DNA of 64,000 nucleotides from contig OZ360228.1 of NCBI GenBank assembly GCA_977017645.1, forward strand, positions 30,752,001 to 30,816,000. Direction: 5' to 3'. Origin of the DNA: Torpedo marmorata (lineage: Eukaryota). The position numbers and the translations under genes are program-made. Below are positions 30,359 through 63,000 of this stretch, in pieces; within the stretch, counting starts at the first letter, position 1; each line of letters begins with the position of its first letter. The notes under the pieces are model-generated. The model worked only from the letters and a program-made list of their open reading frames with translations. It had not been told where the DNA came from and ran no database searches.

Positions 30359-31829
30359 AGAAAATGCCGGCAGGCGTCCGAACAAAGGAGTGAGGGGGGA
30401 AGGGGGGTGGCAAAGGCAGGAGATGATAGGTGGAGAAAGGAGGGAGGGGACAGCAGCAAAGAGGGGGAGGAGGGATGGCTGGGTGGGTGGAAAAAAACAA
30501 GAAGGACAGGTGAGGGGGGAGGGGAAGGGAACAACAAGCAGGTTTAGTGGAAAGCAGAAAAGTCAATGTTAATGCCATCTGGCTGGAGAGTGCCGAGACG
30601 GAATATGAGATGTTGTTCCTCCAATTTGCGGGTAGTCTGGGTGGGATAGTACATGAGGCCATGGACAGACATGTGAGCGTGGGAGTGTGACCCAGAATTG
30701 AAATGGTTGGCTACTGGGAGGTCGCTGTTGTTGCGGACGGAGAGGAGGTGCTCAGCAAAGCGGTCTCCCAATCTACGACCGGTCTCTCCAATGTATAGAA
30801 AGCCACAAAGGGAGCACCGGATGCAGTAGATATGTCCTCTGGATGTACAAGTGAAGTGTAGTTTCACTTGGAAGGCCTGTTTGGTGCCCTGGACCGTGGT
30901 GAGGGGGGAGGTGTGGGCGCAGGTGTTGCACCTCCTGCGGGCACAGGGGAAGGTTCTGGGGGTGCGATGGGTGGCGAGGGACGAGTGCACGAGTGAATCG
31001 CGGAGGGAGCGGTCCCTACGGAAGGCCGAGAGGGGAGGAGAAGGAAAAATGTGTCTGGTGGTGGGATCCTGCAGCAAGTGCCGGAAATTCCGGCGGATAA
31101 TGTGTTGGACGCGGAGGCTGGTGTGGTGGTAGGTGAGGATGAGGGGTACTCTATGTTTGTTGCGTCTGGCGGCAGAGGGGGCCTCTGCGATTCACTCGTG
31201 CACTCGTCCCTCCCCACCCATCGCACCCCCGGAACCTTCCCCTGTGCCCGCAGGAGGTGCAACACCTGCGCCCACACCTCCCCCCTCACCACGGTCCAGG
31301 GCCCCAAACAGGCCTTCCAAGTGAAACTACACTTCACTTGTACATCCAGAGGACATATCTACTGCATCCGGTGCTCCCTTTGTGGCTTTCTATACATTGG
31401 AGAGACCGGTCGTAGATTGGGAGACCGCTTTGCTGAGCACCTCCTCTCCGTCCGCAACAACAGCGACCTCCCAGTAGCCAACCATTTCAATTCTGGGTCA
31501 CACTCCCACGCTCACATGTCTGTCCATGGTCTCATGTACTATCCCACCCAGACTACCCGCAAATTGGAGGAATAACATCTCATATTCCGTCTCGGCACTC
31601 TCCAGCCAGATGGCATTAACATTGACTTTTCTGCTTTCCACTAAACCTGCTTGTTGTTCCCTTCCCCTCCCCCCTCACCTGTCCTTCCTGTTTTTTTCCA
31701 CCCACCCAGCCATCCCTCCTCCCCCTCTTTGCTGCTGTCCCCTCCCTCCTTTCTCCACCTATCATCTCCTGCCTTTGCCACCCCCCTTCCCCCCTCACTC
31801 CTTTGTTCGGACGCCTGCCGGCATTTTCT

Positions 31830-32610: not shown

Positions 32611-34593
32611 TTAACATCTAGAAAGACAATCAGCAATTACATTATCTTTCCCTTTTATATGAGTGATTACCAAATTATATTCTTGCAAAATTAGACTCCA
32701 ATTCAACAACCGTCGATTCTTATTTTTCATTTTACAAAGAAAAACCAATGGATTATGGTCAGTATACACTATGAGTGGTTTTTGAGCTGTACAGATAGAC
32801 ACATCAAAGTGTTGTAGAGCCAACACAAGAGCCAACAACTCTTTCTCTATAGTTGAATAATTCCTTTGATGATCATTGAACTTCTTCGAGAAGTAGGATA
32901 CCGGATGGTCAATGTCCTCTTCATTCTTCTTCTGTAACAGCACCGCACCCACAGCTTCATCGCTCGCATCCACGGCTAAAGAAAACGACTGTTCTAAATT
33001 AGGTGACTTAAGCACAGGTTGGTGGCATAACATGGCATTCAATTTGACAAATGCTTCCTGACAACCTGTAGACCATACAAATTTTTCTTTCTTTCTAAGC
33101 AAATTTGTGAGAGGGAGCGCAAGATCAGCAAAGTTTTTACAGAACTTGCGGTAGTAGCCAATCATTCCCAGGAACCTCCTCAGAGTTTTCTTACCAGTTG
33201 GAACAGGGAACTCGGAAATAGCGACAACCTTTGCCTCTACTGGCGCCAACTTCCCCTGTCCTACAACATAACCCCGAGAATTAACAGTACCATTACCCTC
33301 TCTGAAACTGGTTTTATCTGTCTCCTCCTTACCCCTGTCAATAACCAGTACCTCTGGTAAATTTTCAGTCCCTTTGTGTGGCACCTGTTCAAAATACGGC
33401 TTAATCATATTCACATGACAGACCTGTGTGTCTCGTCTGTGATTAGGTGTTTCTATGACATAGGTGACATCATTAATTTTTGACTTAACTCTATAGGGTC
33501 CTGAAAATCTAGCCCTAAGATGATTTGAATGGATGGGAAACAGAACTAATACGTTCTCACCAGGTTTAAAAGTTCTCATCTTCGCCTTTCGATCATACCA
33601 AACCTTCATTTTCTGTTGAGTGGCCTTTAAATTCTCCTTTGCCATCTCACAAGCCCTATGTAATCGATCCTTAAATTTGGAAACATAATCTAACAGATTT
33701 AAATGCACATCACGATTAATCCACTGTTCTTTTAATAATCTTAAAGGACCTCTCACCTCATGTCCGAAAACTAACTCGAATGGACTAAAACCAAGTGAAT
33801 CTTGGACAGACTCCCTCGCTGCAAATAACAACAAATGAACCCCCTCATCCCAATCCTTTTCCTTCTCACAACAATAGGTTCTAATCATGGTTTTCAAAGT
33901 CGAATGGAACCTCTCCAAGGCCCCTTGACTTTCTGGATGGTACGCAGAGGATACAATCTGTTTAACTCCTAGTCCATCAACCACTTGTTGGAAAACGCCT
34001 GACATGAAATTACTGCCCTGATCTGATTGAATTTCCCTTGGCAAACCTACCAAGGTGAAAAACTTTACCATAGCCTTTACAATTGACTTTGCTTTTATGT
34101 TTCTCAGAGGAATGGCCTCTGGAAATATGGTGGCTGCACACATAATTGTTAACAAATACTCATTCCCCGCTTTGGTTTTGGGCAATGGGCCAACACAGTC
34201 CACAATTACTCTCGAGAAAGGCTCACTGAAAGCAGGGAAAGGTTGCAAGGGTGCCACCGGGGGACCCTGATTAGGTTTACCCACCACCTGACAAGTGTGA
34301 CAGGCCCGGCAAAAGCTTACAACCTCCCTTCTTAAACTGGGCCAATAAAATTGTTTCATTATCTTACTTATAGTTTTCTTCACCCCAAGATGACCACCTA
34401 AGGGTGTACTATGAGCCAAAGTTATTATTGCATCCCTATATACTTTAGGGATCACAACCTGCTGCACTACTGCCCATTCTTCATTGGCAGGAACATCACG
34501 TGGTCTCCACTTTCTCATCAACACCCCATCTTTTTCATAATAACCTACTGGCACCTTTTTAATCTCCTCTTCAGAGAGAACCTTATCCCTCAC
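32611..34593 (-). CDS. Retrotransposon integrase fused in frame to RT-thumb/RNase H (660 aa)
   Basis: H..GGHLG..CHTC, IVDCVGP, IQSDQGSNF, ESQGALER; then FLGMIGYYRKF, VDAS, YSTIEKELLA, YTDHNPL, NVIADCLSR; no YxDD. Confidence 0.85.
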   Translation of the reverse strand: MRDKVLSEEEIKKVPVGYYEKDGVLMRKWRPRDVPANEEWAVVQQVVIPKVYRDAIITLAHSTPLGGHLGVKKTISKIMKQFYWPSLRREVVSFCRACHTCQVVGKPNQGPPVAPLQPFPAFSEPFSRVIVDCVGPLPKTKAGNEYLLTIMCAATIFPEAIPLRNIKAKSIVKAMVKFFTLVGLPREIQSDQGSNFMSGVFQQVVDGLGVKQIVSSAYHPESQGALERFHSTLKTMIRTYCCEKEKDWDEGVHLLLFAARESVQDSLGFSPFELVFGHEVRGPLRLLKEQWINRDVHLNLLDYVSKFKDRLHRACEMAKENLKATQQKMKVWYDRKAKMRTFKPGENVLVLFPIHSNHLRARFSGPYRVKSKINDVTYVIETPNHRRDTQVCHVNMIKPYFEQVPHKGTENLPEVLVIDRGKEETDKTSFREGNGTVNSRGYVVGQGKLAPVEAKVVAISEFPVPTGKKTLRRFLGMIGYYRKFCKNFADLALPLTNLLRKKEKFVWSTGCQEAFVKLNAMLCHQPVLKSPNLEQSFSLAVDASDEAVGAVLLQKKNEEDIDHPVSYFSKKFNDHQRNYSTIEKELLALVLALQHFDVSICTAQKPLIVYTDHNPLVFLCKMKNKNRRLLNWSLILQEYNLVITHIKGKDNVIADCLSRC

Positions 34594-37500
34594 CTCAACA
34601 AGATCAGGATCATCCTTGCTATTAACTCCTGTCGGGATAGTGACAAATCTGTGCCTTTAGGTATCTTATCAGTGGATGGGTGTAACATTGGAGATTGCTC
34701 AACCTTTTCCAGGTTTTCTTGATTATCAGTTTCTTTTTCTTTTACCAAGTTATTTTCCACTGCCTTCTCTACAGTGACATTTTTCTTAGACATGGCCCTG
34801 GTTATGGCACATGCCGGATAAATATCAGAGTCTTTCTCTGACTTATCAATGACTGGCTTAGTGGTCATTCGCACTGCAGGAACTACTTTACCCTTGGCCA
34901 AGTCATTGCCTAACAACAGTGAGACTCCTTCTACAGGAAACTCTGATCTCACTCCTATTATAACTGGTCCTTCCACCAAGTCTGAGTCCAATACTATTTT
35001 GTGCAAAGGAATGGACTCAACCTCACCACCAATTCCTTTAATTAAATTTATGTCACCGGTGTCAGTAACTTCACAAAATTCCAAGACACTATCTAACACA
35101 AGTGACTGAGCAGCTCCAGTATCTCGCAAGATTTTCACTGGAACTTGTTTTGATCCTGCCTTAACTGAAACAAAACCATCAGTCACAAAAGGTTTAAATA
35201 CATCTTTAACTTTGTCAGTAAATTTATCTCCTTCCTGGGTGTTATGCATCTTCTCACTCTGAATACAAGCATTAGGTGTTGCATCCTTTTCTCTCTTCTT
35301 TTTCAACACTGGACAGCTTGCTAGCATATGACCAGCCTTTCTACAGTAGTGGCAAATGGGACCTGAATTGTTTTCCCTTTTCCACTTTCCTTCATCCCTT
35401 TCCTTAACACCACTTCCAAATTTACTTTCCACTTGCTTCTGATTATCCACCGTGACCTTTTGGAAAATTCTACCTGACGTCCACTTAGGCTTGTGGGTTA
35501 AAGCATATTCATCTGCTAACTTAGCTGAATTTTGTCAAGTTTTCACCTCCTTTTCATCTAAGTATGCCTTAATATCCTCAGGAACACACCTTTTTATCTC
35601 CTCAATTATTATCAATTCTCTCAATTGATTGTAATCATTGTTTACTTCCTTAGATGTGCACCACCTGTCAAAACACACAACCTTTTCATAGGCAAACTCT
35701 GTATAAGATTGGGTTGCTGATCTTTTTAAATTTCTAAACTTCTGTCTATAAGCCTCTGGAACTAACTCATAAGCCTGGAGTATAGCCTTTTTCACCGTTT
35801 CATAATCAGCAGCTTGTTCCGTGGTAAGAGTAGAATAAGCTTGCTGAGCTTTTCCTTTAATTACACTTTGTAACATAAGAGACCATTGGTCTTGTGGCCA
35901 TTTCAATTTCACAGCCACTTTCTCAAAATGTTGGAAGTACTTATCTATTTCTGCCTCCTCAAATGGAGGAACCAACCTAACTTCTCTACTAGCCAAAAAC
36001 CCCTCAGCAGGATGACAAATTTGATCTTTGCGCTCTTCTTGTCTCCTCTCATTTTCCAACTTTATCTTTTCCAGCATATGTATCCTATTTTTCTCCTCGT
36101 TCTCTAAGTCTAATCTCTTCTGTTCCCTGGCTATCTCCAATTCTAATTTCCGTTGTTCCAATTCCCTGTTCTTTTGTTCCCTTTCTGCCTCCAATTTCTT
36201 TTGTTCCAATTCCAATTTCTTTATTTCCAATTGTATGTTTTCAGAAGGTTTACCCTTGGGAAACTGCTCTAACATGCTCTCCTCAAACTTTTTTTCTTTT
36301 ATATAGTACTTGACAATTTTTCTCCCAATCTCTGCCTTTTTCATAGATGGTTTTACAGAAGCAATGCCCAACTCTGTTGCTATAGCCACTAACTGTTCCT
36401 TTTTCGCCTTTTTTTAAAGTATCAGGTTCAGGTGATTTCAAAAAATGTTCTACATCCATTGTTGCTGGTTTTTTGTTACACACACACTAGCTTTTAATTA
36501 GCTTTACCAAAAGGAATGCCTTAAACCAAACTGGGATTCCTTCAATTACCAAGATGGATTTTGATTCAAATCCTGCAACGAGCCCCCAATTTGTTACAAA
36601 ATCAAACCAGCAACGACAGAAGACGCAATGCAAAAGGGGTAAAATTGAAATTATTATGTATTAAACACAAGTAAACATATAATTTCACAACAATTAACCC
36701 CACTATAAACGTCTATAAACTCTATTCTTATCTAAACAGTGTATGTGTGTGTGTGTAAAGCCCAGACCATTACAGTCTGTGCCCAACCCTTATGTAAAAA
36801 TGGAAAAACTTTCCCCAAAAACCCCAGGTCAGTCATAAAAAACAAGTCAGTCAAAAAAAAGGATAATACAGTCGACAAAATCCACTCTCTAAGTTCAGGC
36901 TTCAACTTTTCCTCTGTGTCTGGTAGAAGTACTTCTGAATGAACGTTGGAGAGAGACAATGACTGTTTATGCTTACAAATACTTGTTTTCTTCTCTGATG
37001 ACGTCCCCTTCTTGTAGGTGCATAAGGATTGCAAGTTGCAGATCAGTATACCACTGATTTAGGCGTATGCTTGAATCTCACAGCTAGTCTCGCTGATCTC
37101 ACGCCTGTTCTCCACAGAAGTTGCTTTTTCTCAGAATTTCTCTGAGACACGAGGCCATGTGCTATCCTGTCAGTCTTTTCTCTGACTTGCACAAGCCTGG
37201 ATCTGGCTGTGTTCTGTAGCCTTTGCAACTCACAAACTGTGTGCTTTGCAGAGATCTGCCCCTGCTTTTTGCAGAAGTGAAACAAATGTATCTTGTCTAG
37301 TCTGTGTGTCTCTCTCTCTGGTCTCTCTCTGTCTGGGTCCACCAAGAGTGCAACAATGTATCTTGTCTGGGTACACCAAGTAGCTGGGGAAGTTAACTCT
37401 TTCAGTACCTGGCCCCAGTGTATACTCCAAAAGAATTCATCCTTCCTGCTGACCGTCCGCAGTCCAAATGGTCAGTCATGGTCCATAACAGTAGTCATGA

Positions 37501-45402: not shown

Positions 45403-45666
<264 letters not shown>

Positions 45667-46285: not shown

Positions 46286-46344
46286 GGCACAGAAGAGCTT
46301 GAAGTGCGAATTCTGACACAAGCTCGTCCAGGTCAGGACATCAG
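46286..46344 (+). CDS. GPHN: Gephyrin coding exon (E domain)
   Basis: tgcag|GGC ACA GAA...ATC AG|gttgg; GTEELEVRILTQARPGQDI(R); 59 bp. Confidence 0.96.
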
Positions 46345-47288
46345 GTTGGTATCTATATATCATGCATGTGATTTCAATGGTCTACATTTGCAAAGAGTAA
46401 TAGCATCATCGTGTCAACCTTTTCAACACCATCGAGGGCAAAAGTGAGCAAGCAGCCCAATATATTGTGGCATCAACTCTGCTCAATCTGTCCTGCATCC
46501 TTCCCTTTTCCATGAAACCCAATCACTAATGAAAACAGGAATCAATGATTGTCCAGTTTAAGAAGAAAGTTTCACCGGCAACTGTGGGATTTAAGGTCAC
46601 GCAGCGAACGAAAGAGGTAATCGCCCCAATAAATGGTTTTGGGAATACAGCAGTGGGTTTCAGGCAAGTGATAAAGGAGTTGCCCCTGTGCACTGCCTGT
46701 AGCTGTGCTGGTTTGCGCAAGAGGGGGAGTCTGATGAAGATTTAACGAAAATGATAATAGTGCTTGTCAGAAAAGAACTCACACGGAGTCTCAGCAAAAG
46801 CAGCAGCGGTTGACTTTTAATAGTTACAAGTCTGCAGAGTTGGACTCAACTTGCTGTCAGAGCAGTTGAGTGCCTTTCCATCAGTGTAGCAGCCTTTTAT
46901 ACATTTATTTTACTCACAGGTTACATGAGTTCACATTCTGTTCTACCCCTTATCATCATGTACTTCTTAGGCATTTCATCCCCCATCACTGTTTCTTTGT
47001 TTGCAGTACCATTTTTCTTGTTCCCCATATCTGCACAGGCATGCAGCTGCTATTTCAAAGAGCATTTTAACAGCACATTCTAACAGCAGAACATTAACTT
47101 TTCAAAGAGCATTTTAACAGCACATTCTAACAGCAGAACATTAACTTTTTCCTAACAATTCCACCCTTTTTCTTTTTAGAATGTGCTAAGGGTTCCAGGG
47201 GGTCCAACCCCCTCCCTCTGGGGTTCTTTGGAGCAACATTTTCACAGGGTCAGCAGGTTCACCTGGTTGCATCACTTGCATCACAATT

Positions 47289-47576
47289 TCAAGTTATAAG
47301 CATGCGGAAACAGGGAATAACGCAGGGTAACAAGAGGAGCACTAACAATATGCCCCCTACCATTTCATTTGGCCATGCATTCTTAACTAACCAATATGGG
47401 TTGCGATTGCCATTAGATGTATTCCAGCATAATATTTCACCATCATAACACCTGGAGGGGACTACCCCGGAGAGGACGGCCCCCCTCCTTCCCCTCACTT
47501 TCTTTCTTTCCCCATTGGTTGGTACAGAGAGAAAAGCAAGCAATGCTAACAACACAGCAATACAACTCCAATTCAT
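47289..47576 (-). CDS. env: ERV env remnant: signal peptide fused in frame to the TM anchor (95 aa)
   Basis: ATG overlaps pol stop (ATGA); hydrophobic N-terminus CIAVLLALLAFLSV and C-terminal GGILLVLLLLPCVIPCF. Confidence 0.75.
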   Translation of the reverse strand: MNWSCIAVLLALLAFLSVPTNGERKKVRGRRGAVLSGVVPSRCYDGEILCWNTSNGNRNPYWLVKNAWPNEMVGGILLVLLLLPCVIPCFRMLIT

Positions 47577-50302
47577 TTCGAAAGTCTCTTCAGTTTCACG
47601 TGTAAGGGACGCTCAGTAGGTTCACAAGTCCATTCACTGTCCCTCTCAGACACGGGTCCTTTCACCCGGGAGACGTGTGTCCACCCTTTTTCTTTCGTTC
47701 GTACCGCCGCCTCAGTTGTCAGCAGGACTTGAAAAGGTCCTTCCCATTGCGGTTGCAGCTTTTCGGGCTTCCAAGTCTTTACTAAGACCCAATCACCGGG
47801 GACAATATGATGAAGGGCGAAATCCAATGGTGGGGTCTGTGCCAACAACCCCTTCCTTCGTAATTCTGCAAAAGAACGTGATAATGCAAGTAAATAGTCC
47901 CTAAGAAAGATGTCCCCCCTTTCTAGTGAGGGAAATCCCTCTACCTGACTCCAATATGGCATTCCGAATAACATCTCATAAGGAGAGAGTCCAATGTCTT
48001 TACGGGGCGCAGTACGAATCCGCAGTAATGCAATAGGAAGACATCTGGTCCAAGGTAATTTTGTCTCCGTCATCAATTTAGTAAGTTGTGTTTTTAAAGT
48101 GCTATTCATTCGCTCGACTCGTCCTGAACTTTGCGGATGCCAAGGAGTGTGTAATTTCCATTCAATACCTAATGCATCACAGATAAGCTGGTGTGTCTTG
48201 GATGCAAAGTGTGTTCCACGATCAGAATCTATTGACCCAATCACACCATACCTTGGAATAATGTTTTCCAACAATATTCGAGCCACTGTTGGAGCATCTG
48301 CCTTGGTGGTTGAATATGCCTCTACCCATCTTGTGAAATGGTCCACAATTACCAACAAGTACCGCCACCTTTGTACCGGGGGCAATTCGGTGAAGTCGAT
48401 CTGGACTCGGTGAAATGGTCTCAGGGCCAGGGGCTGTCCTCCTCCGGGAGTAGCTCGCATCACCTTCCTATTTACCTTTTGGCATATGGGGCATCCCACC
48501 ACTTCCTGCTGAGCCAGGGTGTAGATTCCTTTACATGCATATTCCCTGAGCACCGTATCACATAGGGCTTGGACTCCCCAGTGGGTTTGCTGATGTAGCT
48601 GCTGAAGAATGTTGCGGGTCACTTCCTTACTCAGTACTTGTCTTCCGTCCGAGATTCTCCATTTGCCATCGGCTTCCTTCTGGGCTCCTAGTTGGTTCAT
48701 TTTATCGATTTCCATTTGCGTAAAGACCGGTAGTTTCGTCGGCTTTTCTCTCACCGGTATCAGAGTTAAAAGTTGTACCGATTCTTCAATGGCTGCCCGC
48801 TTTGCCTCTTCGTCAGCTAGTCGGTTTCCTATGGCCTCTGGAGAGTATCCCTTCTGGTGACCCGGAACATGTACCACCGCAATTTCTGTGGGTAACGCCA
48901 GGGCTTCTAGGGTTATACCTATCATTTGTTCGTGTGCTAGCCCTTTCCCTCGGGCTGTGATCAATCCCCGCTCCTTCCATATTTTCCCGAAGGTATGCAC
49001 TATCCCATAGGCATACTTAGAGTCCGTGTATATCGTCCCGACTTTCTTTTCCAGTATTTTCAATGCCCTCTGGAGGGCATACAATTCACACGATTGAGCC
49101 GACCAGCTGCCGGGGAGTCTCCCTGATTCCACCCTTTTTCCAGTTTCCCCGTTGATGATGGCATATCCGCTATGTCTTATTCCGTCAATGCACCTGGAGG
49201 AGCCATCAATATATAACTCCTGTCCCTCTTCCAGGGGCACCTCCTGTAGGTCTTCACGACTCTTGGTCTGCAGGTCCACCAGCTCAAGGCAATCATGCTT
49301 TGGCCCTTCCTCTCCTCCCGTCCTGTATAGGAACTGGGCCGGATTGCAGTTGGGATACTTCGTGAAATTCAGGTCTTCGCCGGTCATCAGAATGATCTCA
49401 TATTTCAAGATCCTGGAATCTGTTAGCCACCGGTGGGCCTTTTGTGCCAACAGGGCACTCACTGAGTGTGGTGAGTACACGGTGATTTTTCCTCCAAACG
49501 TCAGTTTCCGTGCTTCCTCCACTAGTACTGCAGTGGCGGCCACGGCTTGGATGCAGGTTGGCCATCCTCTGGATACCGGATCCAGCATTTTAGATAAAAA
49601 GGCTACTGGCTGGCGCTTTCCCCCCTTCTCTTGGGTCAAGACTCCAGACGCGATTCCCTCAGCATTATTGACATATAGTTGAAATGGCTTTTCCAAGGCG
49701 GGGAGAGCCAATACTGGTGCTCTTATCAACTGTCCTTTTATCTTTTCAAACAATCTTTCCTCCTCTTCTGTCCATCGAACCTTCCTTTCTTCTTCTCCTA
49801 GTTTTTCATATAGGAACTTAACCAGTGGTGTGTAATTTTCGATCCATATTCGGCAATAGCCCACTAGTCCCAAAAATTGGCGTATTTCCTTTTTACTTTG
49901 TGGTATGGGGAGTTTAATAATTCCAGCCACTCTTTCGGACGTGATGCAGCGATTTCCCTTAGTTAACACGTGGCCCAAGTATCGAACTTCCTTCTCGACG
50001 AATTGTAGTTTTGTCTTCGAGACCCTGAGACCTTGTTTGCCTAAGAAATTCAGCAATCTAATGGTGTCTTTTCTCACTTCACCCTCTTCGGGTCCGGATA
50101 GAAGTAGATCATCCACATATTGTAGTAACTGGTTTTCAGGACTGCATTGAAACTCAGCCAGTACTTGTTCCAACACTTGGCCAAATAAGTTTGGTGATTC
50201 AGTAAAACCTTGAGGTAACACCGTCCACCTAAGCTGTCGCCTTCTTCCTGTCAGTGGGTTCTCCCATTCGAAGGCGAACATATCGCGGCTACCTTCTTCC
50301 AA
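47573..50302 (-). CDS. pol: ERV pol remnant: RT core, RNase H, integrase (909 aa open)
   Basis: WTVLPQGFTESP, QYVDDLL, YIDGSS, IYTDSKY, H..H C..C, IDFTE, IDSDRGTHF, QSSGRVER, WEGPF; protease and RT N-terminus absent. Confidence 0.93.
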   Translation of the reverse strand: MEEGSRDMFAFEWENPLTGRRRQLRWTVLPQGFTESPNLFGQVLEQVLAEFQCSPENQLLQYVDDLLLSGPEEGEVRKDTIRLLNFLGKQGLRVSKTKLQFVEKEVRYLGHVLTKGNRCITSERVAGIIKLPIPQSKKEIRQFLGLVGYCRIWIENYTPLVKFLYEKLGEEERKVRWTEEEERLFEKIKGQLIRAPVLALPALEKPFQLYVNNAEGIASGVLTQEKGGKRQPVAFLSKMLDPVSRGWPTCIQAVAATAVLVEEARKLTFGGKITVYSPHSVSALLAQKAHRWLTDSRILKYEIILMTGEDLNFTKYPNCNPAQFLYRTGGEEGPKHDCLELVDLQTKSREDLQEVPLEEGQELYIDGSSRCIDGIRHSGYAIINGETGKRVESGRLPGSWSAQSCELYALQRALKILEKKVGTIYTDSKYAYGIVHTFGKIWKERGLITARGKGLAHEQMIGITLEALALPTEIAVVHVPGHQKGYSPEAIGNRLADEEAKRAAIEESVQLLTLIPVREKPTKLPVFTQMEIDKMNQLGAQKEADGKWRISDGRQVLSKEVTRNILQQLHQQTHWGVQALCDTVLREYACKGIYTLAQQEVVGCPICQKVNRKVMRATPGGGQPLALRPFHRVQIDFTELPPVQRWRYLLVIVDHFTRWVEAYSTTKADAPTVARILLENIIPRYGVIGSIDSDRGTHFASKTHQLICDALGIEWKLHTPWHPQSSGRVERMNSTLKTQLTKLMTETKLPWTRCLPIALLRIRTAPRKDIGLSPYEMLFGMPYWSQVEGFPSLERGDIFLRDYLLALSRSFAELRRKGLLAQTPPLDFALHHIVPGDWVLVKTWKPEKLQPQWEGPFQVLLTTEAAVRTKEKGWTHVSRVKGPVSERDSEWTCEPTERPLHVKLKRLSK

Positions 50303-51095
50303 GGGACAGCTCCAAAAGGCATCTTTCTCTTTCCCATACTACAATAGCTGCCTGCCTGATCATTTGTCTTTCTTGGGCAGAAAACAACGTTCCCATTATG
50401 GCATACATTTCATCCCAGGTATATATGTTGGGACCCAAGAACTGGTCTAATTGTTGCGCTAGTCCCATTGGATCTTCAAGTAAATTTTTAGTTTCCTTCT
50501 TGAAGGCTCGCACCTCTGTACTTGTTAGAGGCACATTCACATAACCAGTTCCCCCATTTGGGCCTCCCATCGGTACTTCTCTCAAAGGGCACATCTTTGC
50601 CCCGTCCTCGTCTTCCAGCCCTCGTCTGGTCTCAGCCCTTGTCATTATCTTCCTTCGGCAGCTGTCATCCGGGGGATCCCTCCCTTCTTCTCTCTCTCCC
50701 CTTTCCTGTCCATTTACTTCTTCATGAGAGGGCACTGCTTCAGGGGCTGAGACCTCAGGATTTAGTGGTGGAGGGGTGTAAGGAGGAGGTAGGTGGTTTA
50801 ATACTTCCCAGGGGGCTTCTCCTTCGTCCTTCTTCGTTTGCATTTTAAAACTTCTTGTTGAATCCCCGGGCCCTGGGACCCAACAGGAGGCATATTCCCT
50901 TTCATCCGGCTGCGGATGAGGCTTAGAATTTACATACACATTCAGAACCTGCCTTACCCATCCCTCATCTGACCCGAATGGTGGCCACCAAACTGACTGC
51001 CCTTTTATCGGTTGCTTTGACCATAAACTACTAAACCCGATCATTTTCATTTTCTGCTTTCCTCTCGTCCGTCCCAAATCCCAATTTGCTAACAT
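50289..51095 (-). CDS. gag: ERV gag (MA + N-terminal CA), truncated by deletion
   Basis: WPPFGS, PPPY late motif, PLREVPMGG..YVNVPLTSTEVRAFKKE; runs out of frame into RT sequence after VVWERE. Confidence 0.85.
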   Translation of the reverse strand: MLANWDLGRTRGKQKMKMIGFSSLWSKQPIKGQSVWWPPFGSDEGWVRQVLNVYVNSKPHPQPDEREYASCWVPGPGDSTRSFKMQTKKDEGEAPWEVLNHLPPPYTPPPLNPEVSAPEAVPSHEEVNGQERGEREEGRDPPDDSCRRKIMTRAETRRGLEDEDGAKMCPLREVPMGGPNGGTGYVNVPLTSTEVRAFKKETKNLLEDPMGLAQQLDQFLGPNIYTWDEMYAIMGTLFSAQERQMIRQAAIVVWERERCLLELSLGRR

Positions 51096-52482
51096 TCTCC
51101 CGAGGGGACTATCTGGAGGAACCTTCGGGAATACACCCGAACTCTCCTTCGGCTCCCTTTTCTTTGAGCCTGTCTAGGGGACTATCTGGAGGTACCTTCG
51201 GGAATACACCCGAACTCTCCTTTTGCTCCCTTTCGCCCGGTCACACCTTATCCTAGTAGTACCGTCGTACTCACTTACCCGGTGTGCCGCCCTGGACCGT
51301 CCTTCTACTTCTTCCCAGTCTTCCGCTCTGCGCTGTCCGGATATCACTCGCTCAAGCCGCGTGGGTACGACGAGCAAGGAGTCGGGGACCGCCGAACTCG
51401 GCGGGGTGCACCTTCTCCGATGTCCCTTCTCTCGACCCTCACGACCGGAGTGGGGATCCCGGACGAGTCCCCCAAGTTGTCAGAAAAGAACTCACACGGA
51501 GTCTCAGCAAAAGCAGCAGCGGTTGACTTTTAATAGTTACAAGTCTGCAGAGTTGGACTCAACTTGCTGTCAGAGCAGTTGAGTGCCTTTCCATCAGTGT
51601 AGCAGCCTTTTATACATTTATTTTACTCACAGGTTACATGAGTTCACATTCTGTTCTACCCCTTATCATCATGTACTTCTTAGGCATTTCATCCCCCATC
51701 ACTGTTTCTTTGTTTGCAGTACCATTTTTCTTGTTCCCCATATCTGCACAGGCATGCAGCTGCTATTTCAAAGAGCATTTTAACAGCACATTCTAACAGC
51801 AGAACATTAACTTTTCAAAGAGCATTTTAACAGCACATTCTAACAGCAGAACATTAACTTTTTCCTAACAGTGCTCATTGGCAGTGGATGGATCAGTGAG
51901 AATGCTAACCAGCAAACCAACACTAGAAAAACTTCTAACACGTGGCAATCATGGAAGTTGAGAAGACCCAGCTTGATCTTTGAAAAGTGCATTACACTAA
52001 ATATACTGATGTTGTATCATACAAGAGATGTTCACATTTTAAGGGAGTTGAACATAAAATGTTCTTAGGCACTTAAGCAATTTATGTAAAAATATGACCA
52101 AAATGTTTATCAAATAATGTATTGAGGGTTTTTTAAAATTCATTAATTCTTGGGTTTGTAGGTATGAGCGTCAGGATTTTCGTTCCAGAGAGATTAGATT
52201 TAGGTTAAAGGATGATGATAAATTCCCAGGCCACACTGTGGGCCCACTTCCAAGTGGGGATGTTTGCCTGCAGGTTCTATTAGCGGAGCACAATGGGCCA
52301 GTGCTCATTTGGTGGCCTGCCAATACAGAGCAGAACTGTCTTTTGTGCAAGTAACATGCACAAAGAAGTAAAGAGGTTTCCCACATCCAGGGTGCAATCG
52401 CGAGCCACAACAAGTGGCAGGTGGATTGTGAAGAAGAGATGAAGTGTCGCCCAAGGATGGAGATTGGGTAAATCATTGTTAG

Positions 52483-52713
<231 letters not shown>

Positions 52714-53563
52714 TGAGCAGCATTATGTGTTTTATTTTGTCCATACCTTGATGAAGGGCTCAAAACGTTGGTTATGTATCTTTATCTTTGCTACATAAAG
52801 TACACTGTTTGACCTGCTGAGTTTCTCCAGCATTGTGTCTTTACTTCAATCATGGTGTCTGCAGACTTTCATGTTTTACTACAGTATGTGTTTTAATACT
52901 GAGCTCAAGAAATCTTTCAATTTTAACCAAAATGATTTTGTAAGATTGGACTGGTCAATTTACTGTGCCAAATGCAATGATGTCATTGCATTTTATAATT
53001 CAGTGGATGAAATTGTTGCTACCCTTTTTAGCATATGACTGTTAAATTTATGACAACATTGTGTTTTCTCATCCAAGCACCTGTTGCAGCAGTATTTAAT
53101 ATATATATATTTTTTTGCATTAATGTTCAATGTTTCAGAATGAAGCTTTGGAGAGAGATTGTCTGCATTGAAATCATCACACTTCTAAATGCTCTGAAAA
53201 TATGTTTATTTCAAGCAAAAACAGAATGAGAGGCCTGACTTTTGTTTTTGCTGTTTCCCAAATAAATGTGCAGGATATTATGAATTGGGGTGAAACCTGA
53301 CCTGCATCAAATAAAATTTGAACAGTTTACATGAATAGATTATGAAAGAAAACTTGAGAAAACACCTTTTTTGTGAGAAACTGTATTTGTTGCCTGCCTA
53401 TTCCGTTTTTTGTGATGGCAGCAGTTTTTTTTAAGTGAACAACCAATTCATAAATGATAAGTATTCATTCCATCATGCTGCTGATTTGTGCCAGATCGCT
53501 GCAAAGAGGAGAATACAGAATCTCCTACATCTGACTAGCCATGCAAGTCACATGGTCCAATTA

Positions 53564-55464
53564 CCGTATATTTCAGCGTATAAGTCGACCGGCAGATAAG
53601 TCGACCCCCTTTTTCAGCCTCATTTTAATGGTTTTATTGTATATCCGGCGTATAAGTCGATCCCCAAAAATCGCGATGCCTGAGATATTGTGCATTGACC
53701 GGCGTATAAGTCGACCCTCAAAAATCGCGATGATTGCGCTACTGGGCGTTGACCGGCATATAGGTCGACCCACAACGATCGCGCTGATTGAGCTGCTGGG
53801 CGTTGGCTGGAGGTGATTGTTATCATGGAGGCTCAATTGAAACGACGATAGTATGAGGCGAGTTTTAAATTAAAAGTTATAGAAATGGCCAAGAAAACCA
53901 ACAACTGTGCTGCTGCAAGAAAATTTGATATATACGAGAAGTTGGTAAGAGATTGGAGGAAGAAAGAAGATACTTTAAGAAAAATACCAAAAAGGCAACG
54001 TTCGATGAGAAGAGGAATCACTCGTTGGCCAGAGTTGGAAAGTCATGTCGCAGTATGGGTACGTGAACAGAGGCAAGATTGCTACATTGTCACCCGAAAT
54101 AAAATAAGAACATTTGCACTGAAGTGGGCAAAGTCGCACCCAGAACTCAGTAATGATTTTGAAGCTACAGTCGACTGGTGCAACCGTTTCATGAACAGGA
54201 AAAATCTGGTTTTACGACAAAAAACTAAAATTGCTCAGAAACTACCAAAAGATCTTGATCATAAAGTTGTAAGTTTTCACCAGTTTATTTTACGTAACCG
54301 GCAGAAACACAAGTTTGCATTGGCAAATATTGGAAACATGGACGAAACCCCCATGAATTTTGACATGATAGGCAATAGAACAGTGGAATAGAAAGGTGTG
54401 AAAACTGTGCAAACGAGGAGTACAGGACATGAAAGGAGGACCAGGTTTACCGTGGTGTTATCGTCCATGGCCGATGGGACAAAGTTAAGACCCATGGTAA
54501 TCTTCAAGCGCAAACTTAAACCTAAAATAAATTTCCCAGCAGGTATTTTTGTACATTTTCATGAAAAAGGATGGATGGATGAAAATGGTGTAAAACTATG
54601 GATAGACAATGTGTGGAACAGGCGGCCAGTCGGTTTACGCAAGGAACGGAGTTTGCTGGTCTGGGATATGTTTCGTAGCCACTTAACTGAGAACACTAAA
54701 AGTAGATTAGCACAACATAATACTTACATGGCGGTTATCCCAGGTGGTTTGATGTCTATATTGCAACCTCTCGATGTCTGCTTGAACAAGCCATTCAAAG
54801 ACCATGTGCGTGAAGAGTGGAATACATGGATGACGAATGCAGAAAAATCATTTACAAAAGGCGGGGCAATGCGTGCTGCATCGCTTGATGTGCTGTGTGA
54901 CTTCGTGCTCAAGGCATGGGACAAAGTGAAAGTAGAGACTGTAATAAAATCGTTTAAAAAGTGCGGTATCTCTTGTGCAATTGATGGTACGGAAGATGAT
55001 TTATTGTGGGACACTGCGACGAAGCTGAAGACGCCTCATCAGATACAGACTGGGACCCGTACGATGACTGTTTAAACAGTGAGACCCCGGATGTGCTTGC
55101 CGAGATCTTTGCCTCAGACGATGATAGCGAAAGTGATTTTGAAGGGTTCTAAATGTCTTGTTGTTTTCAATAAAAATGTCAATAAAAATTTGTTGCAGTC
55201 GGGTTTTTTTTTGGTTTTTCAAGGGTCGACTTATACGCCGAATCGTGTTTTCAAGGGTCGACTTATACACCGAATCAGGTTTTCAAGGGTCGACTTATAC
55301 GGCGAATCGGGTTTTCAAGGGTCGACTTATACGCCGAATCGGCGTGGAGTGGTTTTTGAGCTGATTTTAAGGTCTCAAAAGTATATCCGGCGTATAAGTC
55401 GACCCCCGTTTTTTGAGAGATTTTTGAGGGTTTCAAGACTCGACTTATATGCCAAAATATTCGG
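53564..55464 (+). mobile_element. pogo-superfamily DNA transposon (Passer/POGK-like, DD35D), full length but disabled
   Basis: TIRs CCG(T/A)ATATTT..GC(G/A)TATAAGTCGA, TA TSD; transposase from ATG 53825 with TAG stops at 53849-53851 and 54389-54391 and a late frameshift; NMDETP / WD / QPLD with 35-aa spacing. Confidence 0.93.
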
Positions 55465-57007: not shown

Positions 57008-60000
57008 TATTACGTGCTCCCAGTTCATTTTCATTTGAGTGGGACTGTCACTTTAAGAGAACAAATCAAGCTGCAAGCCCTGCAAGCTTTGGAGATTGAC
57101 TGTGGGTTGACAGGCTGGGACAGCGTGTACTTATTTTCGCTACTACTGAAGAGAGAGGAAGTGTCCCTGGAACACAGGTGCAGAGACCATGTGACCAACA
57201 TATTAAAGAAACAGTACACTGTTTGATGGGGGGCCATTTTAAGGAAGCAGCACAGGAACAGCAGCTCTTTGAGGAATACTGTGCTGAAGTGGCTTCATGT
57301 GGCCAAAGGAAAGGTCACTTTTGAAGGGGACGTTGAATTCCCCCCGTGGTCAAAGGAAAGGTCACTTTTGAAGGGAACTTGTTTAAACCCCATCACGACC
57401 ATTGTGACGGTCATTTCAGCTGACCCACGAAAGGGTTCTGGAGGCATCGTGAAAGTCACTCGCCTCATTTCCCCTACGCCAGGAAAAGGGGAATTTTGAC
57501 TACCACTCGTATGAAAGGACATTTCTCTGGAAGCACCTCGACAAGGATTTTGTGAGTTTACAAAAGTCTGTCACCCGGTCTCTCCAACCTACTTCGTGAC
57601 TACTTCATTGCATCAATTTAAAGCCTGCGTGTCAACACTGGATTCCTGAGACTGAGCTTTGAACTGACATTCCAGAATCGTGCCTGAGCGGTAATGGTTT
57701 GGGATATGCTACACACACACATAACCACACCCACATAAGTATATTCGCGCATAGTTGGGGGTTAAGTTTAGATAACTGTAGATAAGTTAGATAAGGTGTT
57801 ATATTATTGGTAATTAATAATAAAAATATTATTTTAAATATAACTGTCTTGGCTAATTTTTATTGCTTCTGTCTGAGTACGTAACAAAATTGGGGGCTCG
57901 TCCGGGATCACACCAAAGTGGGAGCTGGGTGATCGATTCATTTTCAATTTGATTGATTAGAATTTTTTTTGAGCCAATTAAAAGGCTTGTGTGTGGAACG
58001 ACAGCAGCGATGTACATTGAGATGTTTGTGGGATCGCCCACCTTTGCAGATTTGCAGGGGGGCGAAAAAAAGTAAGTTGTTGACTATCGCACAAAAGTTG
58101 GAACTGGCGGTGGTCAAACAATCGATAAAAAAGGCAGAGATCCAGAAAGTTATAGGTGACTAGTATGTAATCAAAGGGAAGTTTGGAGAGAAGGAGAGAA
58201 CACAAAGGCAATTCAATTTAGAAAAACTTCGATTTGAGGTTGAGAGAGAGAAAAAGCAGCTTGAGTTAGAAAAACTTAGAGATGCAGAGAGACAAAAGAA
58301 GTTTCAGCTAGAATTAGAAAGACTTGAAGCGGAGGAAGCCGAGAAACAAACGCGGTTTGAGCTGGAATTAGATAAACTTAGAAGGGAGAAAGCCGAGAGG
58401 CAAAGACAGTTTGAGGAAGAAATGGAAACTTGGCAGGAATCTGCTGAATTAGCAGATGAGTATGCTTTAACCCACAGGGTTAAGTTGGTGCCAAGTGGAA
58501 CCTTCAAGAGGGTTAAATTTGTGCCAAGTAAAACCTTCCAGAGGGGTACTGTGGAATATCCACGTAAGTTAGAAAACAAATTGGGAAATGACCTTGCAGA
58601 GGGTAACGTTGTCCCTGCGGAAAGGTTGACTGCCAAGCCAGTCATTGATGAAACAAAGACAGATTCGGATTATATATCCAGCCTGTGCAGTGACGTGAGC
58701 TATGTCTAAAAAGATTGCCAGTGCAGACGGTTTGGACCAGAGTTCTGGTGTTAAACCCAAGAGTAAGGATTTGTCGTTGTCCCGAAAAGAGTTTATAGTG
58801 GGGCAGAACAGAGATCCTGATCTTGCTGAGGTGAGAGATAAGGCTCTCTCTGAGGAGGAAATTAAGAAAGTGCCAATTGGAAATTATTTTAAGGAAGGGG
58901 TGCTAATGAGGAAGTGGAGACCACTTGATATCCCTGCCAATGAAGAATGGGAAATTGTTCACCAGGTTGTAGTTCCTAAAGCCTATAGGGACGGAATTTT
59001 AACCTTGGCCCATGGCACGCCCTTGGGTGGTCATCTTGGTGTAAAGAAAACTATCTATAAGATTATGAAACAATTCTATTGGCCTAGTCTGAGAAAAGAT
59101 GTTGTGACATTTTGCCGGACCTGTCACACTTGTCAGGTAGCGGGGAAACCTAATCAGGGTCCCCCAGTAGCTCCTTTAAAACCTATTCCTGCTTTTGGAG
59201 AACCTTTTTCTAAAGTTATTGTGGATTGCGTTGGCCCATTGCCCAAGACAAAAGCTGGGAATCAGTATTTGTTAACTGTCATGTGTACAGCATCCAGGTT
59301 TCCAGAAGCAATACCACTTAAAAATATTAAAGCTAAAACTGTGTCAAGAGCTCTTCTGAGATTTTTCACTTTAGTTGGTTTGCCTAATGAGATCCAATCA
59401 GACCAGGGAAGTAATTTCATGTCGGGACTGTTTCAGCAGATTGTTAATGAATTGGGAGCTAACCAAATCACATCATCTGCATATCATCCAGAATCTCAAG
59501 GGGCCTTGGACAGGTTCCAGTCGACCCTCAAAACTATGATGAGGACCTATTGTCTTGAGAATGAGAAGGACTGGGATGAGGGTGTCCATTTGCTTTTGTT
59601 TGCAGTAAGAGAATCTGTACAAGAATCATTAGTCTTTAGCCCTTTTGAGTTGGTGTTTGGACATCAAGTTAGAGGACCTTTAGTGTTGTTGAAGGAACAA
59701 TAGGTTAATGAGGATGTGCAGTTGAATTTGTTAGATTATGTTTCAAAATTTAAAGATCGTTTGCAGAAAGTCTGTGAATTGGCCGAAGAGAATTTAAAAA
59801 TGGCTCAAGTAAAAATGAAGGTCTGGTATGATAAAAAGGCTAGGGTGAGAACTTTTAAACCATGTGTAAAGTATTAACTCTTTTCCCAACAAATTCTAAT
59901 CCCCTTAGGGCAAAATTTTCAGGCCCTTATGAGAAAGGTGAATGAAGTTAACTACATAGTTAAAACACCTGATCGGAGACGTAAAACGCAGAGTTGCCAT

Positions 60001-63000
60001 GTCAATATGTTAAAACCTTATTTTGAGAACTTGGCTTTTAGCAAGGAACAGCCTTCACCAGAGGTATTGTTTTTGATAAAACTGAGGAGTTTACGGACCC
60101 TAAGGCAGCACAAGCTGACTCTTGTGAGGGTCACTTCAAACAAAATATTGTCCCAGTTCGTCTGTCTAATGCGAGTATTTTGCAGAATTTGGATGCTAAG
60201 TTGGCTCATCTTCAGCCCCAGGAAAAGGAACAAATGAAACAGCTACTTTTAAAATTTAGGAACCTGTTTCCAGATGTGCCTAAGAGAACCCCAGTAACTT
60301 GTCATGATGTTGATGTTGGAGATGCTAAACCTATCAAACAACATCCATATCGAATGAATGTTGAAAAGTGAAAACTGGTAGATCAAGAGATTGAATATAT
60401 GTTAAAGAATGATATTATTAGACGTTCTACCTCAGATTGGAGTTCACCTTGTGTCCTGGTGCCTAAATCAGATGGGACGGTTAGATTTTGCACTGATTAT
60501 AGGAAAGTTAATGCGGTAACAAAGTTGGATGCTTATCCTATCCCTAGGGTGGATGATTGTGTGGACAAGGTTGGAAAGGCTAAGTTTCTTACGAAGATGG
60601 ACTTATTAAAAGGTTACTGGTGTGTTCCCTCAACAGACAGAGGTAGGGAAATTTCTGCATTTGTGATCTCGTCAGGGTTATATGAATATAATATTTTGCC
60701 ATTTGGATTGAAAAATGCTCCAGGGACATTCCAAAGGATGATTAATATTATGTTACGTACTAGACCAGCAGCAATAGAAATACACCAAGACAATGGTATT
60801 TTCAAAAACAATAATTTTTATGAATAACTATTAATAACATAACACTTCTTACTTAACTCTAGCTTAACCCCACTTTGCGCAAAAAACCCCACTTTGCGCA
60901 AATGTATATATGTGTGTGTGTGTGTGTGTGGCAGGTCCCAACCATTACAGTTTAGGCACGATTGTAAAAAGAATCAATTTTTAATGTTCAGTCAGTTTTG
61001 TGTTGAAACTCAGATTCTTTAAATTGTTGCTCAAAATCAATTATGGAGTATTTTGAAACATCAAGTCATCAGACCTCTTTAAAACTCACAAATTTCTTGA
61101 TGAGTTGTTTTCAGAGTAATGTTTCTTCATACGAGTGATTTTTCCTCTCTTGCATGGAGGTTACAGTACTTGTGATCTCTGCACGATGATTTCAACAAAC
61201 CCAGGCAAGGGTTGAACGAAGTAACCATTTAAAAATGGTTATGTTTCAAATACAAGATTAATTTTCCTTTCTTAATCAAGAGTGACCATTTCAATGGACA
61301 CAACGAGACTGTCCTCTCTTTTAAAGAGACAGTCGGAAGTGGTTATTTTCTTCAAAACCACTTTTTCAGTGTTCCTCCTTTTCATAAGGAGAACACAAGC
61401 AGCCTTCCTTTTTCAAAGGATTGTTACTGTATTTCAATCCTGTGTGACTTCTTCTGGTCTCAAAATGTCTCTGTTTCAGTAATATGTTCTCTGAAAATGT
61501 CTCATCCATGACACGACCTCATTGCTATTACTTTGAAGTTACTTCAAAGTTACTTCACATCTATATGCTAAAAGCAAATGACTTCATCTCTGTCCACTCA
61601 AACCCACAATCAAGTGGCTGTTTTGTTTGAAGTTTCAATTCTAAAAACATGAGTAATCAAACAGATGGTCAGTTGTTTTGACCAGCAGTCCTTTTTGAGT
61701 ACACAAGTACTTCAGTTTTCAATGAACCATTCTTCTAATTCCATGGCATGTTTATACAGTTAGTAACTGACAACAATTTGCAGACAAATGGTCTCCGAGA
61801 TCTGCCAGCTGCCATTTCAAAGGATTTTCTGAGTGTAATTGTGTGTGTCTGTAAAATGTAAATGTATGTATGTGTCCTTCCAGCCCACTTATTCGCTTAC
61901 TAAGAAATAATATATAATATTTTATACCTAAAGATTAATATTAGCACAAATCCATCACATCTGTAACTCAAGGTTTAGAGCATCCGGATGCTTATATTGA
62001 TGATCTGGTTACAAAAATGACACATGGGAAGCACATATCTCTGAGTTAGAGAAATTATTTGACAAACTTTCAAAAGCAAACCCTACTGGTAATTTAGCTA
62101 AAAGTGAATTTGGCCATGCTACTGTGACTTATCTTGGCTATGTTGTTGGTCAGGGCAAGTTGGCGCTTGTCCGGGCGAAAGTTCAGACGATTTCTGAGTT
62201 TCCCATTCCTACGGGTAAGAAAACTGTTAGTAGATTTTTGGGAATGATAGGGTATTATAGAAAGTTCTGTAAAAGTTTTGCTGATATCGCCTTCCCTTAA
62301 CTAACCTTCCGAAGAAGGGTGAAAAGTTTGGACAGAATTTTGTCGAGAAGCATTTGATAAACTGAAAGCCATTTTATGTCACCAGTCTGTGCTTAAGTCA
62401 CCTGACTTTGAGAAGCTATTTTCTCTAGCAGTAGATGCTAGTGATGAAGCTGCAGGAGCAGTGCTATTACAAAGGAATGGTTGTGATGATATTGACCATC
62501 CAGTGGCTTACTTCTCCAAGAAATTCAATAAACATCAAAATAATTATTCTACTATAGAGAAAGAATTATTGTCCCTTGTACTGGCTTTGCAGCATTTCAA
62601 TGTTTACATCTGCACAGCTCAGGAACCACATTGTGTATACTGACCATAATCCCTTAGTGTTCTTGAGTAAAATGAAAAACAAAAATAGACGATTGTTAAA
62701 CTGGAGTCTAATTCTACAGGAATATGATTTAATGATAACTCATATTAAAGGCAAGGATAATGTAATTGCTGATTGCCTTTCAAGATGTTAAGTTTACAAC
62801 GTTACTGGAAAATGTTATATTTGTCTGTATTATGTCATGTAAATAGTGGATGTGTTATTTCAAACATTGTAGTTTGCAGTTAAAATTTTGCTCTTACAGC
62901 TCAAAATTTTCTTTCTTGGTGGGAGGTATTACGTGCTCCCAGTTCATTTTCATTTGAGTGGGGCTGTCACTTTAAGAGAACAAATCAAGCTGCAAGCCTT

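Follow-up and report, generated by a model that had tools for sequence, protein, structure and literature searches.

The window analysed here is a 64,000-nt stretch of the genome of the ray Torpedo marmorata (contig OZ360228.1, positions 30,752,001 to 30,816,000, forward strand), and it contains an endogenous retrovirus (ERV) at 46765-51870 on the minus strand, within an intron of the gephyrin gene (GPHN). This element is very probably non-coding and derived by deletion from a very young ERV family of class I (gamma-like), whose ~880 proviruses are a number extrapolated from one contig. Its deletions are also found at ~150 other loci, and full-length copies in the same genome likely provided the Gag, Pol and possibly Env with which it was packaged, reverse-transcribed and integrated. 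The locus is ordinary within its family, one of hundreds, and the family is the finding.

Structure of the provirus and its insertion site

The provirus (5,106 bp), its parts and the nearest host exons were located as follows, in window positions:
46286..46344, plus strand: host gephyrin exon upstream of the insertion
46760..46764, no strand: left copy of the target-site duplication (TSD), GTGCT
46765..47157, minus strand: 3' long terminal repeat (LTR), 393 bp, with an internal 47-bp tandem duplication at 47053-47149
47158..47177, minus strand: polypurine tract, adjoining the 3' LTR
47289..47576, minus strand: env remnant of 95 codons, comprising a signal-peptide-like start, a short piece of the surface subunit and a membrane anchor
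47573..50326, minus strand: stop-free pol remnant, comprising the palm, thumb and connection of reverse transcriptase (RT), RNase H and integrase, without protease or the RT N-terminus, out of frame with gag
50323..50326, minus strand: gag-pol deletion junction "A", ~1,439 nt gone, 4-nt microhomology
50327..51173, minus strand: gag remnant from matrix to the N-terminal part of capsid (CA), without a start codon, the frame stopping 12 codons past junction A
51103..51238, minus strand: leader lesion, with the gag ATG deleted and a 73-nt unit duplicated
51456..51474, minus strand: primer-binding site (PBS), fitting the 3' end of host tRNA copies save for one extra A
51478..51870, minus strand: 5' LTR, same sequence as the 3' LTR
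51871..51875, no strand: right copy of the TSD, GTGCT
52515..52668, plus strand: host gephyrin exon downstream of the insertion

The two LTRs (46765-47157 and 51478-51870) were identical at 393/393 positions and ended in TG...CA, the PBS began 3 nt past the 5' LTR, and the purine tract lay directly before the 3' LTR on the minus strand. Together with GTGCT on both sides, these features identified an integrated retroviral provirus, and they agree with what an earlier model-made account (the sequence-only reading) had claimed for the identical 393-bp LTRs, the TSD, the PBS and the purine tract. Its 909 pol codons were rightly called stop-free but miscounted, the frame being open over 921 codons stop to stop (47573-50338), ~917 of them downstream of junction A. 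Pfam matches in the pol frame covered RT, limited to model positions 76-204, together with RNase H and integrase; in the gag frame they were confined to Gag_p30, of which no more than the first 50 positions matched. On the host side, three GPHN exons (45469-45588, 46286-46344 and 52515-52668) showed AG/GT ends, in-frame joins and gephyrin E-domain sequence; since the exons flank the insertion and join in frame, the element is intronic, as had been proposed, and antisense to GPHN. The insertion enlarged the host intron from 1,059 to 6,170 nt. No AATAAA or ATTAAA was found on the GPHN strand within this antisense insertion, whose effect on the gene is conceivable.

Comparison with other copies resolved three lesions. 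The gag-pol deletion measured 1,439 nt against 5/6 comparable full-length copies and 1,442 nt against one; it took out the CA C-terminus, nucleocapsid (NC), protease and the RT N-terminus, as the earlier account had described for a deletion at ~50325, and it shifted the frame. The env deletion (1,251 nt in 15/16 comparable copies, in frame, junction 47364|47365) removed most of env, again as previously noted, and the remnant lacks the CXXC, immunosuppressive-domain (ISD) and CX6CC-type motifs of a gamma-type Env. The third lesion, absent from the earlier account, is the loss of the gag start codon, with a leader junction (51219-51238) that is common to 47/83 of the copies fetched. As judged from its frames, the window element cannot supply its own replication proteins (no protease, NC or complete RT), and with all three out of reach, mobilisation in cis is excluded.

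Recurrent lesions and candidate endogenous helpers

Genome-wide counts were made as exact 24-mer matches, with reversed 24-mers as controls. The 24-mer across gag-pol junction A was found at 146 loci and that across the env junction at 152 loci; a 24-mer from the undeleted RT N-terminal stretch, which is missing from the window element, was found at 142 loci, and an LTR 24-mer gave 1,844 exact matches. The reversed controls gave 0 matches genome-wide. A 201-nt stretch spanning the gag-pol junction was 100% identical at 40/40 loci scored, and the env junction was also present at 10/17 junction-A loci (contigs C1, C2 and C5). Because the junction 24-mers recur at these 146 and 152 loci and are not private to the window locus, the deletions predate integration, which the sequence-only reading had considered probable. 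These results show that replication-abolishing lesions are common to independent insertions.

For the family census, 97 ERV loci were fetched, and 15 that were not two-LTR elements (cut by the fetched stretch, solo LTRs, one 10-kb copy, one duplicate) were left out; the analysed set comprised 83 copies, the window element among them. On contig C1, 88 LTR matches resolved into 41 pairs and 6 singles, 5 of the singles being solo LTRs with TSD, and parsing covered 40/41 pairs, all but a 10-kb copy that contains a nested insertion. Scaled from C1, the genome would hold ~880 proviruses and ~105 solo LTRs. A 5-bp TSD was present in 38/40 C1 proviruses. Protease was missing in 22/40 (junction A 6, B 10, C 2, D 3, other 1), and the pol remnant was truncated in 10/23 junction-A copies. 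Env was open in 19/40 C1 proviruses, 7/40 having an open env but no protease (7/22 of the protease-deleted copies), and gag and pol were open without env in 3/40. In 6/40 C1 proviruses (95% interval 6-30%), gag with its ATG, pro-pol and env were all open, and 4 of these had identical LTRs. These copies belong to the same LTR family and have the same PBS, and are thus coding-competent relatives with the same cis signals, competence being judged from open frames only. By this measure, helpers appear to be present as endogenous copies in the same genome. The earlier claim of an active helper retrovirus is supported as far as full-length open copies are concerned, and no virus from outside the genome is required for that role.

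Junction A and the env junction occurred in every one of their four possible combinations (12, 11, 5 and 55 of the 83 copies), and the env junction was found on A, B, C and D backgrounds. Between the window element and 11 double-deletion siblings, the differences fell in clustered tracts (element positions 3197-3251 and 3558-3620) and were not scattered, as expected from template switching between co-packaged genomes. These patterns indicate that the deletion alleles are shuffled by recombination. The gag ATG was missing in 45/50 protease-deleted copies, with all four alleles represented, versus 5/33 protease-bearing copies; since most copies share one leader junction, this loss would be one lesion spread into four backgrounds and not 45 events. 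We infer that silent RNAs may make better passengers. Pairwise dN/dS (ratio of nonsynonymous to synonymous divergence) between sub-lineages was 0.07-0.2 for pol, ~0.2 for gag and 0.54-0.60 for env, and env reached ~0.9 among near-identical copies.

We propose that family RNAs would be co-packaged and that template switching would turn them into mosaics, the four gag-pol deletion alleles being shuffled with several env alleles. RNAs without the gag ATG and the segment from NC through protease to the RT N-terminus would be favoured passengers, as they would make no truncated Gag and keep their cis signals, and they may now outnumber the helpers, as in the cattle ERVK C/D system discussed below. 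The mismatched PBS likely comes down from donor copies, and in roughly one in three new integrations it would be restored to the tRNA sequence.

Further variation was observed within the family. Splicing is disfavoured as the source of the deletions, the flanks examined having no GT...AG pairs, and template switching is preferred; microhomology amounted to 4 nt at junction A, 2 nt at C and 9 nt at D, with none at B or at the env junction. All four gag-pol alleles end no more than ~160 nt apart in RT, and several independent env deletions end in one 160-nt stretch ahead of the membrane anchor. The deletions at junctions B and C (JB and JC, e.g. L007 and L013) preserve the reading frame, and the resulting Gag-RT/RNase H/integrase fusions run to 1,088-1,227 codons, with NC and protease missing. 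One 3.2-kb copy (L070, G000:C1:100888600-100892500) is bounded by identical LTRs and a TSD yet lacks the PBS, the leader and gag, its 5' LTR joining the RT connection region directly, and may be an aberrant strand-transfer product. The 10-kb provirus (L063/L097, G000:C1:57092700-57104500) has a ~3.9-kb insertion in pol with a ~22-nt TSD-like overlap at the insertion ends, and a second element has probably already jumped into this young ERV. The LTR U3 region brings LTR length to 346-558 nt via tandem duplications (23 lengths), and env occurs with two 5' types and two C-terminal lengths. Five-base TSDs (76 of the 83 copies) showed a weak palindromic N-T-N-A-N bias, with T at position 2 in 46/76 and A at position 4 in 37/76.

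Primer-binding sites, age and rival explanations

The PBS was compared across the 83 copies, of which 45 carried exactly one extra A, as does the window element, 29 were perfect to the tRNA end, 5 had an extra C, 1 an extra G and 3 some other form. Mismatched sites exceeded one half (52/81, p = 0.007, with copies that are not independent). The extra A was seen at 0/34 T-loop-anchored matches at tRNA-like loci; these 34 matches are CCA-bearing tRNA fragments and not genes, ARAGORN made no gene call in 20/20 of the tRNA-like fragments, and Rfam gave only a weak tRNA match to such a fragment. We take the primer to be tRNA-Pro. Retroviruses copy the primer into one PBS strand, and a mismatch hence reverts in part of the progeny. 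Among 10 clusters of near-identical copies, 0 had only the perfect PBS and 8 mixed the extra A (or G, or C) with the perfect form. The pattern fits donors that nearly all have a mismatched PBS; recombination in the nearly invariant leader is an alternative source of the mix.

A separate set of loci (L098-L117) consists of CCA-bearing 3' fragments of the primer-type tRNA, 22 to ~60 nt long and followed by ATTT(T)GTT, one version being amplified on many small contigs. Their appearance suggests primer copies that were extended too far, bordering a different LTR family.

To date the family, LTR pairs were pooled over C1. Fully identical LTRs were found in 34/40 pairs, and the pooled pairs differed by 7 substitutions in 17,449 bp (0.04%), which corresponds to 0.09-0.9 Myr (million years) at two rates quoted in PMC4422223, the upper value following from the rate of 2.2e-10 assumed there. 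Free of any rate, this divergence is ~40x below the 1.56% flank divergence to organism A. The claim that the element is very young is therefore borne out at the level of the family, which points to youth where the window locus alone does not.

The insertion site was empty in organisms A, C and D, each ~1.6% or more diverged from the window. In run X1 (organism A), one 1,046-nt contig spanned 45941-46764 and 51866-52109 with nothing between; in run X5 (organism D), a 2,418-nt contig joined both flanks without the element; and in run X3, the left-flank contig continued into non-LTR sequence. Sharing of the insertion with related species, which the earlier account had named as evidence that would count against it, was thus looked for, and the site proved empty in these three. 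No alternative haplotig of the locus was found in the assembly. The virus family itself was present in runs X1 and X2, several X2 pieces being identical to the window, and near-identical virus sequence occurred in runs labelled as two different organisms. None of the X1 and X2 contigs listed bridged either deletion junction; they ran into undeleted sequence, but since contigs drop rare variants, no weight is placed on this. The invasion is recent and possibly still going on.

A stronger version, which we put forward tentatively and do not expect to hold in full, is that a class I retrovirus is invading the ray germline right now, that its ~900 proviruses, of which >100 would be fully open, are already losing ground to passengers without the gag ATG and protease, and that only copies with a mismatched PBS donate because copies with a perfect PBS are silenced by tRNA fragments. 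The host lineage is not known to have KRAB zinc-finger silencers. If this version is true, endogenisation of the koala type would here be caught under way in a cartilaginous fish for the first time.

Several points weigh against reading the element as a passenger of a young and possibly active family. Zero differences in a single 393-bp LTR pair allow a divergence of up to 0.76%, or 1.7-17 Myr. Contig C1 is the only unselected sample, the other loci having been picked by likeness to the LTR, junction A or the protease region, and the genome totals are extrapolated from C1. The association of ATG loss with protease deletion comes largely from one shared leader junction in copies that are not independent, and 57/83 fetched copies share one leader haplotype, within which mixing of PBS types by recombination could pass unseen. 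The weak env dN/dS would fit either reinfection or intracellular spread. No transcript, particle or new insertion was observed, and polymorphism within the species and de novo mobilisation are putative; no RNA dataset was listed for the locus, which is not taken to bear on its expression.

The burst may also be over, the family having amplified within the last 0.1-0.9 Myr. Its copies would by now be silenced and for the most part fixed, and in a ray that evolves slowly, LTRs and frames would have had too little time to decay. We regard this as a serious competitor, though not as the expected outcome. It agrees with the 0.9 Myr obtained for the pooled LTRs at 2.2e-10, with LTR differences or indels in 6/40 C1 copies, with the 5 solo LTRs, with CpG-type changes among the singletons (16/105) and with a truncated pol remnant already present in 10/23 junction-A copies; the family also occurs in the organism A run, and germline entry may predate that split. 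However, LTRs are fully identical in 34/40 copies, the solo:provirus ratio is ~0.12, 32/79 copies have no private change in 2.4 kb, and some of the differences may be RT errors made at insertion. This account departs from the best explanation in timing only, not in mechanism. Another account, which we judge unlikely, places the helper outside the genome, as a circulating exogenous virus that repeatedly reinfects the germline and of which the endogenous full-length copies are footprints, not the protein source. Copies with all frames open are nevertheless plentiful in the genome (6/40) and sufficient as helpers, and env-deleted classes are abundant (152 loci for one allele; 3/40 with gag and pol open and env lost), which fits intracellular spread. 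An exogenous virus would, for its part, account for a synonymous divergence between sub-lineages of up to ~0.5 in pol under purifying selection, far above the 1.6% host divergence to organism A, for the two env 5' types and the open env in 19/40 C1 copies, for near-identical virus in runs of two organisms, and for a sister Pol from a stingray at 86% among the relatives listed.

Repeated near-identical elements of 5-8 kb are prone to mis-assembly, and a matching TSD was missing in 6/83 copies; shared junctions and identical LTRs could on these grounds be ascribed to segmental duplication, gene conversion or assembly collapse and not to reverse transcription. Each copy nevertheless has its own flanks, and 76/83 have their own 5-bp TSD. 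The LTRs, 346-558 nt long, fall into 56 haplotypes among 83 copies and match within loci, not between them, while the haplotype of the window element is private to its locus yet present in both of its LTRs, and the left flank is single-copy in the assembly. This explanation is accordingly extremely improbable, and the haplotype pattern leads us to reject collapse and conversion, both raised by the sequence-only reading, as causes of the LTR identity.

Relatives, known systems and significance

The best PDB matches of the RT were MLV/XMRV-type "p80" RTs (E ~1e-55), the next group following at 1e-21, and an MLVIN_C domain and a YVDD motif were present. The RT and the MLV-type integrase C-terminal domain identify a class I (gamma/epsilon-like) retrovirus, and the arrangement of gag and pro-pol, in one frame with an amber TAG between them in 32/32 copies that keep the gag end, is likewise that of class I. 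In undeleted copies Env is gamma-type, with CWVC, an ISD-like stretch containing YQNR, a CX7CC variant and a match to Pfam TLV_coat (E 1e-11); CXnCC variants are described in 10.1101/2021.11.23.469661. Among the 120 database relatives listed, the closest named Pol proteins were those of Hemitrygon (86% across 57% of the query), Hypanus (76%), Narcine (72%) and Leucoraja (66%); birds, a bamboo shark, squamates and echidna came next, at 43-60%. In a FastTree tree with 35 rows (31 chosen matches plus 4 family members), rooted at midpoint and without reference viruses, Hemitrygon joined the family (99) within a group of batoids (97), in keeping with a ray as the host. The gamma clade is described as amniote-only in PMC6001957, and the family may belong with either the gamma or the epsilon clade of that paper.

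No HERV-I-labelled sequence was among the 120 database relatives listed. HERV-I has an Ile PBS, and that of the present family is Pro-like. PMC4422223 mentions class I ERVs related to HERV-I in the lemon shark, in birds and in reptiles, and the family resembles them in the host spread of its Pol relatives among those listed (batoids, bamboo shark, birds, squamates, echidna). Those chondrichthyan ERVs that we found dated in print are >50 Myr old (PMC4422223), and high-copy ERVs with a gamma-type env are already known in cartilaginous fish (10.1101/2021.11.23.469661). In the literature consulted, neither this family nor any young batoid ERV was described; the ERV lineages of 6 cartilaginous fishes tabulated with 10.1101/2021.11.23.469661 may include a relative.

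Internally deleted forms that keep the LTRs, the leader and part of gag are familiar from ETn/MusD, IAP I-delta-1 and recKoRV, IAP I-delta-1 having a gag-pol deletion. Unlike these, whose hosts are mammalian, the present family retains both RNase H and integrase in nearly all of its defective classes, and env stays open in many protease-deleted copies (7/22 on C1). ETn/MusD, IAP I-delta-1 and recKoRV/KoRV-A are listed as trans-mobilised defective systems in PMC10924933, which itself describes cattle ERVK[2-1-LTR] C/D, a young clade of hundreds of loci with a competent-type minority of 15%. As in that system, defectives here outnumber competent copies and recombination points to co-packaging, in keeping with the parasite-of-parasite model given there. 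Cattle ERVK C/D is class II (beta-like), one D type arose from a swapped-in old segment, and its mobilisation was measured in sperm (PMC10924933), whereas the present family is class I, resides in a cartilaginous fish, shows at least four independent plain deletions with a shared gag-ATG loss, and is mobilised by inference. The mechanism proposed here is already known from these systems (PMC10924933).

The survey of invading ERVs (ERVi) in PMC10435555 covered 2,004 vertebrates and reported 0 ERVi in 13 cartilaginous fishes; its third criterion is insertional polymorphism within a species. [quoted passage not shown] In mouse ERVs, the PBS form seen most often does not fully match the primer tRNA, perfect "revertants" turn up here and there among closely related copies, and escape from silencing by 3' tRNA fragments has been proposed (PMC7472051). 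The commonest PBS is likewise mismatched in the present family and perfect forms are scattered, with the differences that the mismatch is a single-base insertion in a Pro-type PBS, that the host is of a fish lineage, and that the pattern is known from sequence alone.

Work on endogenisation while it is under way has been confined almost wholly to mammals and birds. Within one genome here, near-identical proviruses number in the hundreds, deletion morphs arose several times independently, recombination tracts can be seen and the PBS is dimorphic. Two ideas thereby become testable by observation in a distant lineage, namely that ERV families are driven to extinction by their defective passengers and that selection favours PBS mismatches as an escape from silencing by tRNA fragments.

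Other repeats were observed around the GPHN exons. Just past the downstream exon, at window 52760-52880, lies a SINE-like (short interspersed element-like) repeat of very high copy number, found on tens of thousands of contigs in three runs. Further transposon remnants lie in GPHN introns at window 32611-36413, 58164-60827, 27245-28699, 53852-55075 and 30544-31575, and from their motifs we take them to be two Gypsy-type elements, another piece of integrase, a pogo/Tigger-like transposase with an interrupting stop, and Penelope-like GIY-YIG fragments arranged head to head.

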